Assembly (NCBI RefSeq): GCF_054482525.1
Contig: NZ_CM137006.1
Strand: one strand, 5' to 3'
DNA: 64,000 nt
The position numbers and the translations under genes are program-made. The notes below the pieces were generated by a model that was not told where the DNA came from, did no database searches, and was given only the letters and a program-made list of their open reading frames with translations. Every line of letters begins with the position of its first letter. Within the stretch, counting starts at the first letter, position 1. Below, in pieces: positions 2,030-6,832 of the stretch.

Positions 2030-2716
2030 ATGACCCCAATAAAAATATTTATGACTATTGCTGATTTCAAACGGCCTAAATTGGAGCTCCCAAACGGGGC
2101 AAACAAACTACTACTGCACTCTTGCTGTGCTCCATGTTCCGGTGAAGTGATGGAGGCGCTTCAGGCCTCGGGAATCGACTACACCATCTTTTTCTACAAC
2201 CCGAACATTCATCCTCAGAAAGAGTATTTAATTCGTAAGGATGAAAATATTCGCTTTGCTGAACAACACGGCGTGCCGTTTATCGATGCTGATTACGACA
2301 CCGACAACTGGTTTGAACGTGCCAAAGGAATGGAATGGGAGCCTGAGAGGGGGATCCGTTGTACCATGTGTTTTGACATGCGTTTTGAGCGGACAGCGTT
2401 GTACGCTGCTGAAAATGGTTTCAGTGTGATCAGCAGTTCACTGGGCATTTCACGCTGGAAAAATATGCAGCAGGTTAACGAGTGTGGGCGGCGAGCTGTT
2501 GCGCATTATCCGGGTATGGTGTACTGGGATTATAACTGGCGCAAGCAGGGCGGCTCGTCCCGTATGATTGAAATCAGCAAGCGCGAAAAATTCTATCAGC
2601 AGGAATATTGTGGCTGTGTGTATTCTCTGCGCGATACCAATCTACACCGCAAATCTCAGGGACGCCCTCTTATCAAAATTGGCCAACTCCACTACGGAAA
2701 AGAAGAGAAGGAGTGA
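2030..2716 (+). CDS. queH: QueH-family (DUF208) epoxyqueuosine reductase homologue, prophage moron
   Basis: Shows the cysteine motifs [18 protein letters not shown] and QEYCGCVYS in the order characteristic of DUF208/QueH. An alternative start is the ATG at 2051. A 150-bp intergenic region with promoter-like TTGACA (1905-1910) lies upstream. Confidence 0.75.
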
Positions 2717-2748
2717 TTTTATGGATCACCTTTCTGATTGATTTTATA

Positions 2749-2777
2749 TTGGCGAGGTAACGGGAGTTAAGTAGAAT
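2749..2777 (+). promoter_or_regulatory. putative hok mRNA promoter (-35 TTGGCG, 17-bp spacer, -10 TAGAAT)
   Basis: The hexamers were read directly. The downstream leader GGGTGCTTGAGGCTATCTGTCTCAGGCATGA resembles the 5' end of hok-family mRNAs. Confidence 0.45.
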
Positions 2778-2833
2778 GGCTGCGGGTGCTTGAGGCTATC
2801 TGTCTCAGGCATGAACACCAAAGGCAGATAGAG

Positions 2834-2904
2834 AAAAGCCCCAGTTAACATTACGCGTCCTGCAAGACGCTTAACATTAATCTGAGGCTCAATCTATGAA
2901 CGGC
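2834..2904 (-). ncRNA. sok: putative Sok-like antisense RNA (ends approximate)
   Basis: A minus-strand promoter is readable: TTGCCT (2939-2934), 17-bp spacer, TAACCT (2916-2911). The predicted RNA covers the mok start region. A long stem AGCCTCAG/CTGGGGCT is followed by CTTTTC. Confidence 0.4.
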
Positions 2905-3108
2905 AAATCTAGGTTAGCCTCTTACGTGCCGAAAGGCAAGGAGAAGCAGGCTATGAAGCAGCAAAAGGCGATGTTAATCGCCCTGATCGTCATCTGTTTA
3001 ACCGTCATTGTGACGGCACTGGTAACGAGGAAAGACCTCTGCGAGGTACGAATCCGAACCGGCCAGACGGAGGTCGCTGTCTTCACAGCTTACGAACCTG
3101 AGGAGTAA
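2896..3108 (+). CDS. mok: mok-like in-frame N-terminally extended reading frame of the hok toxin
   Basis: 70-aa ORF with the same architecture as MokC/HokC, i.e. an in-frame extension. Confidence 0.55.
   Translation: MNGKSRLASYVPKGKEKQAMKQQKAMLIALIVICLTVIVTALVTRKDLCEVRIRTGQTEVAVFTAYEPEE
2953..3108 (+). CDS. hok: Hok/Gef-family type I membrane toxin (51 aa)
   Basis: MKQQKAMLIALIVICLTVIVTALVTRKDLCEVRIRTGQTEVAVFTAYEPEE is close to HokC/Gef as recalled from memory. Confidence 0.85.
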   Translation: MKQQKAMLIALIVICLTVIVTALVTRKDLCEVRIRTGQTEVAVFTAYEPEE

Positions 3109-3177
3109 GAGACCTGGCGGGGGAGAAATCCCTCGCCACCTCTGATGTGTCAGGCATCCTCAACGCACCCGCACTTA

Positions 3178-3198
3178 ACCCGCTTCGGCGTTTTTTCC
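3178..3198 (+). terminator. degenerate terminator copy at the hok mRNA 3' end (ACCCGCTTCGGCG-TTTTTTCC)
   Basis: Only a 3-bp stem remains. It matches the intact terminator at 3843-3868 apart from a 2-3 nt deletion. Confidence 0.3.
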
Positions 3199-3251
3199 GT
3201 TGATTAACTCTAGTTATTAGAGAACCGAACTTTTATTGATGGGGCAGGGAG

Positions 3252-3644
3252 ATGAAGAAACTTGTTTTAGTCGCAGGTGTAATGATTGCAACAGTAATGT
3301 TGGGAGGGTGTGCAGCAAAGATCGATCCAGCGTTGAAAGCAGAAGCAATGAAGCCACTAACATGTAATGATGAAAAGCAATGTGACTTTTATTGGAAACG
3401 AGCGCAATTCTGGTTGGCTAATAATTCCTCATGGAAAATTCAAACGGCGACAGACACGCTAATTTCCACTTATAATCCCTCTCCAAATAGTCCATTCCTC
3501 GCTTATCAAGTGAGTAAAATGCCAAATGAAGATGGATCCTCAAGAATTTTCATCAAGCCTTTTTGCGATAATATGTTTGGCTGTCAACCAAACCCCTATC
3601 AGGCAGTTGTTTCCTTTAAAAACTTCGTTAAAACAGGGCAGTAG
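3252..3644 (+). CDS. lipoprotein of unknown function (moron)
   Basis: Has a signal peptide with the lipobox LGG|C (MKKLVLVAGVMIATVMLGGCA). GGGAG lies 2 nt before the ATG. The segment is visibly AT-rich. Confidence 0.75.
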   Translation: MKKLVLVAGVMIATVMLGGCAAKIDPALKAEAMKPLTCNDEKQCDFYWKRAQFWLANNSSWKIQTATDTLISTYNPSPNSPFLAYQVSKMPNEDGSSRIFIKPFCDNMFGCQPNPYQAVVSFKNFVKTGQ

Positions 3645-3842
3645 TGTATAGCTTGGACGATAAATTATTAGTGAAAACGCCGTAAACCCTCACCCAATGT
3701 GGACTAAGTCTATCAAACATGACTGTGATGATTAGTCCGTAGTTGTTGTCTATGAAATCTGGATTGAGTCAGGGTTTAATCCAATAATTATTCTATCGTT
3801 CCTTTACAAGTCCGGTATATTACTTTCAGTTTGTTTTAGCAT

Positions 3843-3868
3843 ACCCGCTTCGGCGGGTTTTGTTTTTT
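3843..3868 (+). terminator. intrinsic terminator (ACCCGC-TTCG-GCGGGT + T-run)
   Basis: 6-bp GC stem, UUCG tetraloop and a T-rich tail. Confidence 0.75.
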
Positions 3869-3940
3869 CCTGGCATTCTGGTTTACAATTCGCACGCCAG
3901 CCTGAACAACTGGCACCTGCTGCGCCAGCAGAGACAACCG

Positions 3941-4219
3941 ATGGCGCACGATACCAAATTACACAATTCTGATGATTCTGCCGTCTTTGCCAGCAGGCAC
4001 GGGCGGCGTTCCCGCACTTTCAAATCTGACTGGTTCCAGCATGACCCATGTACTGAAGAACAGGCCGAATGGCTAATTCATAACTATCGCAGACGCGGAT
4101 ACGAGATTAAGAAAGCCCTCAGCCTCGATTATCGTCACTGGATAATCTATGTCAGGCTCCCTTATTCCGAACGCCCACCGCGCCCATCCCGCACATACCA
4201 GCAACGGATCTGGAGGTAA
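3941..4219 (+). CDS. hypothetical NinR-region protein (92 aa)
   Basis: The ORF track start at 3860 (TTG) lies inside the terminator, so the ATG at 3941 is preferred. The stop TAA at 4217-4219 abuts the next gene's GTG. Confidence 0.5.
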   Translation: MAHDTKLHNSDDSAVFASRHGRRSRTFKSDWFQHDPCTEEQAEWLIHNYRRRGYEIKKALSLDYRHWIIYVRLPYSERPPRPSRTYQQRIWR

Positions 4220-4220
4220 C

Positions 4221-5270
4221 GTGCGGATATTACTTCGACCTGTTCTGGTACCGGAACTCGGGCTGGTGGTCCTTAGGCCGGGCCGTGAATCCATGCAAGT
4301 ATTTCATAACCCTCGAGTGCTGGTGGAGCCTGAACCGAAAAGCATGCGCGGTCTGCCGTCCGGAGTCGTCCCTGCCGTTCGCCAGCCGCTGGCGGAGGAT
4401 AAATCATTACTGCCATTTTTCAGCGATGAGCGGGTGATTCGTGCTGCTGGCGGCGCTGGGGCGCTGTCTGACTGGCTGTTGCGTCATGTCAAATCCTGCC
4501 AGTGGCCTCATGGTGACTATCATCACAGTGAAATCGTCATACATCGTTACGGTACCAGCGCGATGGTGTTGTGCTGGCACTGCGACAACCAGTTGCGTGA
4601 CCAGACATCCGAATCACTCGGGCAACTTGCTCATCAAAACCTGTCAGCATGGATGATTGACGTCATACGCCATGCAATGAATGGCACGCAGGAGCGGGAA
4701 TTGTCGCTGGCTGAATTATCTTGGTGGGCGGTCTGCAATCAGGTGGCGGACGCGCTTCCGGAGGCAGTATTACGTCGTTCTCTGGGGGTACGTGCGGAAA
4801 AAATCCGCTCCTTGTACCGCGAAAGCGACATCGTACCGGGAGAGCAGACCGCCACCAGCATACTGAAGCAGCGCACAAAAAATCTTGCGCCGTTGCCTCA
4901 TGCCCACCAGCAACAGAACCCACCACAGGAAAAGACGGTGGTATGCATCACCGTTGATCCGGAGTCTCCGGAATCTTTCATGAGGCGACCTAAACGTCGC
5001 CGTTGGCTAAATGAGAAATATACGCGCTGGGTGAAGACACAGCCGTGTGCGTGTTGTGGTCAGCCAGCCGACGATCCCCATCACCTGATTGGTCACGGTC
5101 AGGGAGGGATGGGAACAAAGGCCCACGATATTTTCACGCTACCGTTGTGCCGGGAACATCACAACGAACTTCATGCGGATCCGCTGGCGTTCGAAGAAAA
5201 GCATGGTTCCCAGGTTGATTTAATTTTTCGTTTTCTTGATCACGCCTTTGCAACCGGCGTGCTCGGGTAA
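4221..5270 (+). CDS. DUF968 (YdfU-like) protein with a C-terminal HNH-like Cys/His motif
   Basis: The GTG at 4221 follows GGAGGTAAC. The C-terminus reads CACCGQPADDPHHLIGHGQGGMGTKAHD...LCREHHNELH. The gene precedes rusA, as in Qin/Rac-type prophages. Confidence 0.7.
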   Translation: MRILLRPVLVPELGLVVLRPGRESMQVFHNPRVLVEPEPKSMRGLPSGVVPAVRQPLAEDKSLLPFFSDERVIRAAGGAGALSDWLLRHVKSCQWPHGDYHHSEIVIHRYGTSAMVLCWHCDNQLRDQTSESLGQLAHQNLSAWMIDVIRHAMNGTQERELSLAELSWWAVCNQVADALPEAVLRRSLGVRAEKIRSLYRESDIVPGEQTATSILKQRTKNLAPLPHAHQQQNPPQEKTVVCITVDPESPESFMRRPKRRRWLNEKYTRWVKTQPCACCGQPADDPHHLIGHGQGGMGTKAHDIFTLPLCREHHNELHADPLAFEEKHGSQVDLIFRFLDHAFATGVLG

Positions 5271-6340: not shown

Positions 6341-6393
6341 TCATGCAAATCTGATATTTTGCCGATTTTGTACGTGATGGCAAAAGCAAACAA

Positions 6394-6418
6394 AACCCGC
6401 CCACAAGCGGGTTTTTTG
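6394..6418 (+). terminator. tR'-like intrinsic terminator (AACCCGC-CCACAA-GCGGGTT + T6)
   Basis: 7-bp stem followed by a T-run. Confidence 0.8.
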
Positions 6419-6522: not shown

Positions 6523-6598
6523 GGCCCTTTAGCTCAGTGGTGAGAGCGAGCGACTCATAATCGCCAGGTCGCTGGTTCAAATCCAGCAAGGGCCACCA
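6523..6598 (+). tRNA. ileZ: tRNA-Ile2 type (anticodon CAT, ileX/ileZ-like)
   Basis: Cloverleaf is readable. CAT lies at 6556-6558. The sequence is very close to E. coli ileX as recalled, and CCA is encoded. Confidence 0.8.
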
Positions 6599-6599
6599 G

Positions 6600-6676
6600 C
6601 CGCCACTAGCTCATCAGGAAAGAGCGTCAACCCTTTAAGTTGAGTGTGCGAGGTTCGAGTCCCCGGTGGCGGTCCA
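6600..6676 (+). tRNA. noncanonical tRNA-like gene: anticodon loop CCTTTAA (nominal UUU, C at position 33), C1-G72, U73
   Basis: Acceptor stem CCGCCAC/GTGGCGG is 7/7. D stem is GCTC/GAGC. Anticodon stem TCAAC/GTTGA is 5/5. T stem CGAGG/CCCCG has one A-C mismatch. The T loop is TTCGAGT and CCA is encoded. Confidence 0.6.
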
Positions 6677-6678
6677 GT

Positions 6679-6754
<76 letters not shown>

Positions 6755-6757
6755 TAT

Positions 6758-6832
<75 letters not shown>

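Follow-up and report, generated by a model that had tools for sequence, protein, structure and literature searches.

The stretch of DNA analysed here (the window, 64,000 nt of contig NZ_CM137006.1 in RefSeq assembly GCF_054482525.1) is a lambdoid prophage of Escherichia coli. A 1,521-nt query taken from it (2780-4300) was 100% identical to E. coli AR_0077 and 99.7% identical to phage vB_EcoS-689R5. The genes are arranged in the order of replication genes, DUF977, QueH, hok, a lipoprotein gene, a 92-aa open reading frame (ORF), DUF968 (ydfU type), RusA, Q, four tRNAs and holin, and RefSeq labels the part that concerns us hokD, hypothetical and DUF968. All the features placed below from the hok promoter to the DUF968 gene are on the plus strand. 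Our subject is a 665-bp cassette with the lipoprotein gene, which is found between two copies of one hairpin sequence, ACCCGCTTCGGCGTTTTTTCC at 3178-3198 (the left copy) and ACCCGCTTCGGCGGGTTTTGTTTTTTCC at 3843-3870 (the right copy). The sequence-only reading of this DNA had already given both sequences and their coordinates exactly, including the 3-bp stem on the left. The two copies have the 13-mer ACCCGCTTCGGCG in common, which occurred at no third site in the 64 kb and in 0 of 100 shuffles, and the pair was the top direct-repeat family in 2700-4400. Because of this 13-nt repeat the register of the cassette is ambiguous, and its limits may be drawn anywhere from 3178-3842 to 3191-3855.

The left copy is the right copy minus 7 nt, GGTTTTG. 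Folding analysis showed the right copy to be an intact intrinsic terminator, and it was the sole terminator-like site in a scan of 2700-4300. The left copy, which occupies the place of the hok terminator, has decayed to a 3-bp stem with a UUCG loop and U6. When a region of about 41-48 nt was folded, the right copy reached -13.1 kcal/mol (z -3.06) and the left copy -6.0 kcal/mol (z -0.31); the hairpins alone gave -10.5 and, for the 3-bp stem, -3.1 kcal/mol, respectively. Between the copies there is a 5' untranslated region with the ribosome-binding site GGGGCAGGGAG (3199-3251, as drawn from the upstream alignment of homologues), the lipoprotein gene (3252-3644; 130 aa; RefSeq WP_000737634.1, 'hypothetical protein') and an AT-rich 3' untranslated tail of 198 nt (3645-3842). 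The lipoprotein gene was the sole ORF of at least 60 aa on either strand between the copies, and the G+C fraction (GC) was 0.375-0.42 within the cassette vs 0.53-0.60 in the flanks, in agreement with the AT-rich module encoding a 130-aa lipoprotein (LGGC lipobox, four further cysteines) that had been read from the letters alone. The cassette would be a mobile accessory unit (moron) made up of hairpin, leader, lipoprotein gene and AT-rich tail. In the 198-nt tail we found no ORF, no Rfam match and no similarity to other cassette contexts. An indel region of about 69 nt (about 3692-3760) lies between the arms of an inverted repeat in the tail (3683-3698 / 3763-3778) and holds a GGACTAA/TTAGTCC stem. 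A short allele (L006, L023 and others) is without this segment of about 69 nt, and locus L061 has a different deletion that fused the tail to a mutated right hairpin.

To judge from its sequence, the gene directly 5' of the left copy is a hokD/mokW-type toxin gene. A candidate hok/mok promoter (TTGGCG-17-TAGAAT, 2749-2777; 9/12 matches in a consensus scan) is just upstream of the start of the Rfam hok/sok match at 2784. It is followed by the hok mRNA 5' leader / sok antitoxin region (2784-2958; Rfam RF01794 sok, 110 bits vs a gathering threshold of 59, E 6e-25) and by a mok frame of 70 aa (2896-3108; Pfam HOK_GEF, E 3e-23), which encloses hok (2953-3108, 51 aa). At the equivalent position RefSeq has hokD WP_000813254.1, and the same protein was found in prophages without the cassette. 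The fold-back inhibitory (fbi) element of the hok mRNA (3158-3170) is predicted to form a 12-bp long-range helix with tac (2784-2795). The left copy begins 8 nt past fbi, which puts it exactly where a hok terminator is expected, and since hok lies directly upstream, what had been read as a damaged copy is the terminator of the hok mRNA, and its state bears on the formation of the 3' end of that mRNA. In hok loci the tac/fbi helix locks the full-length mRNA, which is later activated by slow 3' trimming (PMC9841398). The locus in the window has the mok/hok frames, the sok region, the tac/fbi helix and the terminator position typical of the family (PMC9841398). It differs from hok/mok/sok loci in that the hairpin after fbi is cut to 3 bp and is present in degenerate form only, and in that the next intrinsic terminator comes 665 nt further on, past the lipoprotein gene.

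Empty sites and other occupants of the slot

The insertion joints were placed by comparison with cassette-free relatives. In two prophages (L001 and L002) the sequence reads ...CACTTAACCCGCTTCGGCGGGTTTTGTTTTTTCCTG(G/A)CATTCTGG..., namely the left flank, an intact hairpin, the bipartite T-tract and the right flank, and it differs from the window by exactly 665 bp with no other gain or loss. Since these empty sites join an intact hairpin directly to the sequence downstream of the right copy, both insertion joints lie inside one hairpin. The right copy is the same sequence as the empty-site hok terminator, including the bipartite T-tract and the native downstream flank, and in the empty-site prophages the 92-aa ORF comes straight after that terminator. 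This ORF is the right neighbour of the slot in the window (3941-4219; phrog_1212, E 3.9e-37; RefSeq hypothetical) and is followed by the ydfU-type DUF968 gene (4221-5270; Pfam DUF968, E 1e-76, as annotated in RefSeq). We propose that the cassette recombined into the terminator hairpin of a hok/mok/sok type I toxin locus, which would form a variable slot between hok and the 92-aa ORF/ydfU. For this explanation as a whole, in which a moron recombined into the hok terminator hairpin, is expressed by read-through and yields a lipoprotein facing the periplasm, we estimate a probability of about 0.7. The sequence-only reading had suggested an insertion by recombination at a terminator that was duplicated in the process. 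The first half of this holds, with both joints in the hairpin, whereas a duplication was not established, given the hairpins on homologous cassettes (see below).

The uninterrupted hok-terminator junction was found in about 2,158 of 5,426 E. coli genomes and the cassette in 254, of which 249 had at least 80% of the hok-to-DUF968 query span; in E. coli the cassette thus appears to be essentially always in the hok slot. A metagenome scan added mostly E. coli copies, and a scan of genome contigs yielded no confirmed locus. Elsewhere the same slot was occupied by rem (K-12 Qin), by a rem-like 86-aa ORF or by 290 bp of AT-rich DNA, and in IMG/VR at least 6 different sequences followed hok terminators. 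Because of these varied occupants and downstream sequences, the hok terminator can be regarded as a general mosaic joint. The rem cassette of K-12 Qin (ydfU-rem-hokD) shares with the present one the slot between the hok terminator and the 92-aa ORF/ydfU. However, its gene is unrelated, Rem being a small non-lipoprotein, and it begins only once the terminator and T-tract are complete, with no second copy of the hairpin left behind. In another locus (L044, 3400-4000) hok was present twice in tandem, and the beginning of a rem-type cassette came after the first copy; the join contains an N, which makes an assembly artefact probable.

Three allele classes of the cassette were recognised, most copies being more than 99% identical and the short and L101 alleles about 95-98% identical. 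The backbones that bear it vary, with ydfU only 84-100% identical and differing gene content. Such near-identity across divergent backbones is what would be expected of a later acquisition. Among the 77 E. coli-type cassette loci fetched, the decayed left copy was present in 76, wherever that flank was covered; in this survey the contig of L081 begins too near the gene to judge, and in L007 the hok side is replaced by other DNA. The most divergent allele (L101) has a left copy decayed further, to ACCCGTTTCGGAG. In L007, an IMG/VR prophage, the hok side (1-331) is swapped a few nt before the lipoprotein start for DNA with a minus-strand ORF, which we take, by eye, to resemble orfA of an IS3-family (IS629-like) transposase.

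The cassette fits the classical moron (PMC3594210): its 665 bp are extra DNA in collinear relatives, the GC values given above show a deviant base composition, and a terminator is present downstream (3843-3870), which is simultaneously that of hok. Further likeness to morons in the HK97/HK022 sense (lambda bor and lom; HK97 gene 15) lies in the arrangement of one small gene followed by an intrinsic terminator and in the several positions occupied in related phages, including tail-operon junctions. Unlike those, the E. coli cassette lacks a recognisable own promoter and has a 5' hairpin either within it or in front of it, and its 3' terminator is that of the resident hok locus. The cassette is an ordinary kind of phage moron that would not surprise phage biologists, but its insertion scar is unusually clean. 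With both joints in one intrinsic-terminator hairpin, thousands of empty sites and several alternative occupants, it offers a clean, datable example of moron entry.

Origin of the left hairpin copy

The left copy has the hok side as its 5' flank and the cassette side as its 3' flank, and homologous cassettes in other phages bear on how it arose. Homologues with 66-84% amino acid identity to the protein of the window were found in phages of other Enterobacterales, with sources including Enterobacter, Pantoea and Phytobacter. One lies between the tape-measure protein gene (TMP) and M (L067), one between K and I (L071), two just upstream of I (L062 and L063) and one between I and J (L064). Sister phages have no spacer at the TMP-M junction or at the K-I junction, so that the inserted segment is everything between the flanking tail genes, and these two junctions are, by that comparison, natively without a terminator. 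In an alignment of the upstream regions, homology extended from the start codon up to a hairpin and T-tract 73-81 nt upstream of it, and four of these phage contexts had the same or a compensated hairpin at this fixed distance: CCCGCTTCGGCGGG in L063, CCCGCTTCGGTGGG in L067 and variant hairpins in L071 and L062. L064 has no recognisable hairpin at that position. Every hairpin but the two E. coli left copies retained all six stem pairs; there was one compensatory change, from GC to AU, besides several wobble changes, and the hairpin energies in the other contexts were -8.8 to -11.4 kcal/mol vs -3.1 kcal/mol for the E. coli left copy. Synonymous sites among the homologues are saturated (proportion of synonymous differences, pS, 0.6-0.95). 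The kept pairs, the fixed distance and the saturated synonymous sites indicate that the 5' hairpin is a long-standing component of the cassette, and this favours recombination between hairpin and hairpin. At least the 3' half of the left copy may thus stem from the hairpin of the cassette, joined by recombination to the hok terminator already present. The two hybrid copies seen here would result from a single crossover if the intermediate were circular, or from an unequal exchange. We give about even odds to the left copy being such a hybrid of the hok terminator and a hairpin already borne by the cassette.

Several points weigh against this part of our explanation. Over its 21 nt the left copy departs from the right copy only by one 7-nt gap between two GTTTT repeats, and a duplication plus one slippage deletion would explain the left copy economically. 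The pair-count statistics, made with 8 sequences, were not significant. The hairpin common to homologous cassettes may reflect convergence rather than descent; indeed, because it is among the commonest phage terminators, its identity is weak evidence of descent in either direction.

The strongest competing account is that a hairpin-free cassette was inserted in the hok terminator, that the whole 28-nt terminator was duplicated at the joints by a staggered-break or microhomology-mediated process, and that the left copy later lost GGTTTTG by slippage. It agrees with a left copy that equals the right copy minus exactly 7 nt, the distal TTTTTTCC included, with a gap that falls between two GTTTT repeats, and with outer flanks on left and right that are exactly those of the empty site. 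The hairpins of L063 and L067 are, moreover, each one deletion away from a hypothetical undamaged left copy, ACCCGCTTCGGCGGGTTTTGTTTTTTCCGTTGATTAAC, and the other cassettes could descend from an ancestor in the hok slot. However, no transposase, terminal inverted repeats or other machinery for long target duplications was found, and 28 nt is long for a target-site duplication. Homologues whose synonymous sites are saturated (pS as above) still have the hairpin equally far from the start, with a stem altered by wobble and compensatory changes, which fits a long-standing component better than a scar. We consider this account a serious contender, though one with the odds somewhat against it. An insertion of the transposon type with target duplication was rejected, with no inverted repeats at the cassette ends and no transposase.

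Other histories share the remaining probability. One of them, far less probable than the two above, is that the occupied state is ancestral and that recombination between the direct repeats later deleted the cassette to give the 'empty' sites. Repeats in direct orientation at a distance of 665 bp are prone to deletion, and a crossover in the shared 13-mer would restore exactly the intact terminator of the empty site. But empty junctions were about 8.5 times more frequent (2,158 vs 254 genomes) and more diverse in sequence, and hok loci with the same terminator and unrelated downstream DNA were widespread. The cassette is also AT-rich relative to both flanks and near-identical across divergent backbones, neither of which speaks for an ancestral position.

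The two hairpins alone are no proof of common origin because phages very commonly have the exact 18-mer CCCGCTTCGGCGGGTTTT as a terminator: 100 of its 122 occurrences in the first 120 IMG/VR stretches were in non-hok contexts. What makes the pair meaningful is the comparison with the empty sites. That the hairpins are two independent terminators of a very common type, one of the upstream neighbour and one of the cassette itself, and irrelevant to its arrival, is highly improbable even with the exact 18-mer in at least 100 unrelated phage contexts, for in the empty site the outer flanks of the two copies meet at a single hairpin, without any further gain or loss of sequence, which makes the hairpin the joint itself and not a mere neighbour, and the right copy also has in common with the hok terminator the entire bipartite T-tract and the flank downstream. 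On the same empty-site alignment we also rejected a chance coincidence of two common terminators. Many of the non-hok hairpin sites (loci L103-L222 from IMG/VR) preceded a recurring TT(T)ATGCC(C/T)GGAG...ATG arrangement, which suggests a terminator and the next gene's ribosome-binding site as a conserved intergenic module in some phage group.

Expression from the hok transcript

A consensus scan of 3178-3251 found no sigma-70-like site between the left copy and the start codon. An extended -10-like motif, TGATAGGAT, is common to L063, L064 and L071, and its TAGGAT core is kept in L062 and L067. In the E. coli alleles the motif reads TTATTAGAG (in the window) or TTATCAGAG, with the final T missing. 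Because the left hairpin is no longer terminator-like and the -10-like motif is degenerate, we infer read-through as the simplest reading and offer it as a prediction. The lipoprotein gene would be transcribed mainly from the hok promoter (2749-2777), with pR transcripts contributing in lytic growth, and the hok and lipoprotein transcripts would both end at the intact right copy. If this is true, a type I toxin mRNA would here carry a second cistron, which would be unusual. The tac/fbi helix was present in the predicted minimum free energy structure whether the transcript was taken to end at the left copy (415 nt) or, after read-through, at the right copy (1083 nt). Two points count against read-through: the 3-bp C(UUCG)G hairpin with its U6 could still terminate some transcripts, and a non-consensus promoter may lie within 3199-3251.

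More speculatively, the decay of the left hairpin might itself be functional. The cassette would then extend the hok mRNA at its 3' end, a long-lived transcript locked by tac/fbi would serve for synthesis of the lipoprotein, and the activating 3' trimming would start 680 nt further downstream. In the same proposal the CCCGC-UUCG-GCGGG hairpin would serve as a portable recombination joint for cassette swaps among lambdoid phages. We consider this rather unlikely.

The lipoprotein family, its possible role and neighbouring genes

The 130-aa protein begins with MKKLVLVAGVMIATVMLGGC, in which a signal peptide is followed by the lipobox LGGC (Cys20; the consensus is [LVI][ASTVI][GAS]C, and the Gly at -2 lies outside its strict form), and it has four further cysteines at 38, 44, 105 and 111. 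The lipobox was kept, with its Cys invariant, in all aligned homologues. Residues +2 and +3 are Ala. By the Lol rule of E. coli, a lipoprotein with no Asp at +2 is sorted to the outer membrane, and from Ala at +2 we predict that the Lol pathway places the product in the outer membrane, facing the periplasm. C20, C38, C44, W48, T73, C105 and C111 were invariant in distant members, and the cysteines suggest two CX5C disulfide loops. The ratio of nonsynonymous to synonymous substitution rates (dN/dS) was 0.05-0.2. The AlphaFold2 (AF2) model had a mean predicted local distance difference test score (pLDDT) of 84, with block means of 84-96 from residue 31 onward. Taken together, the dN/dS values, the invariant residues and the AF2 confidence indicate that the lipoprotein gene is real.

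The protein had no Pfam, NCBIfam or PADLOC-DB match; in Pfam at E <= 0.1 there was only a spurious match to C4 collagen. PADLOC likewise gave no match for the lipoprotein, the 92-aa ORF or DUF968. In PHROGs it matched phrog_16082 (E 2.9e-84) and, distantly, phrog_4186, both of them families of unknown function, and the view that the lipoprotein belongs to no recognised family was thereby upheld. A word-indexed homologue search with a diverse alignment returned only 'hypothetical protein' names, and a literature search on the protein accession and the PHROG identifier found no mention. The 90%-identity cluster that holds the lipoprotein (3252-3641; 1,137 members) also lists many Hok sequences and offers no useful name; the admixture is evidently a clustering artefact from fragments that span both adjacent genes. 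A profile search defined a family of 1,140 clusters at 50% identity, 532 of them at E <= 1e-10, and most members are lipoproteins of 125-140 aa. Among the distant members P0034, P0101, P0111, P0134, P0155 and P0117 there are C-terminal PDZ fusions, and one (P0117) is a tandem repeat of the domain. In L062 (4386-4784) and L063 (4344-4679) a second, unrelated small lipoprotein gene comes right after the homologue and overlaps its stop codon, and the two genes form a two-lipoprotein moron.

A profile search of PDB sequences gave no match, nor did Foldseek against PDB and BFVD at E <= 0.001. The best matches below threshold were Flpp3 (DUF3568, Francisella) and the N-terminal domain of BamC. These differ from the lipoprotein in showing only 12-13% identity and no Pfam match to DUF3568, and the alpha+beta fold match is generic, because eukaryotic KA1 domains scored similarly. 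Membership in DUF3568 was rejected for want of a Pfam match to that family.

As for function, our best guess is a putative envelope factor expressed by the prophage, such as a superinfection-exclusion or receptor-masking protein. It is a tentative one, held because of the repeated recruitment at tail-gene junctions and lysogeny-type positions. Tail-gene junctions and early-region neighbourhoods are classic sites of exclusion morons, and also of other conversion genes. About equally likely, and so equally tentative, is a role outside phage exclusion: the protein may add to host fitness or virulence, through serum or stress resistance of the Bor/Iss kind or through envelope homeostasis, or it may act in the periplasm as the partner or inhibitor of an envelope enzyme. 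Some distant members are found among chromosomal housekeeping genes and some in prophages next to early or repressor-side genes. The chromosomal ones fit a host role, the PDZ fusions and tandem repeats point to periplasmic protein-protein interaction rather than a phage-specific role, and the best fold matches, Flpp3 and the N-domain of BamC, come from bacterial lipoproteins whose role is in the envelope or unknown. However, there is no sequence relation to Bor/Iss by Pfam, phage DNA, or in L072 a phage remnant, harbours the Enterobacterales homologues that were located, most of them at tail-gene junctions, and more distant members adjoin early-region genes.

Like Cor (phi80/N15/HK022), Llp (T5) and Bor (lambda), the protein is a small lipoprotein from a phage accessory gene, its homologues often adjoin tail genes, and its Cys pairs suggest periplasmic disulfides. 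Unlike them, it has no detected sequence or fold relation to the three, none of which was among the fold matches listed, and its mature domain of about 110 aa is larger than Cor or Llp. Membership in the Bor/Iss family was rejected, with no match to the Pfam Bor model, and so was membership in the Cor family, where a phrog_1119 match (E 0.0088) is limited to residues 1-43, made up of the signal peptide, the lipobox and about 23 residues at the start of the mature protein. The impression by eye that the protein resembles neither Bor nor Cor was therefore correct by Pfam, PHROGs and fold search, and no likeness to Llp was seen. These results draw attention to a large unmodelled lipoprotein family, with 1,140 clusters, four invariant cysteines outside the lipobox and occasional PDZ fusions, which has been recruited repeatedly by temperate phages of Enterobacterales and occurs in about 5% of the complete E. 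coli genomes, among them enteroaggregative E. coli (EAEC) 042.

Further features of the prophage lie on both sides of the cassette. The QueH (epoxyqueuosine reductase) gene (2030-2716; Pfam E 1e-65) is in the early region directly upstream of hok; it was present in only about 13 of 55 compared cassette-bearing relatives and is thus a further accessory gene of this prophage group. Just 3' of Q, isrJ/isrK-like Rfam matches (6344-6417) were weak, with 24.5 and 22.7 bits, below gathering, and E values of 0.45 and 0.17, respectively. Between the Q antiterminator gene and the holin gene there are four tRNA genes (6523-6829), annotated in RefSeq as Ile, Lys, Thr and Gly.

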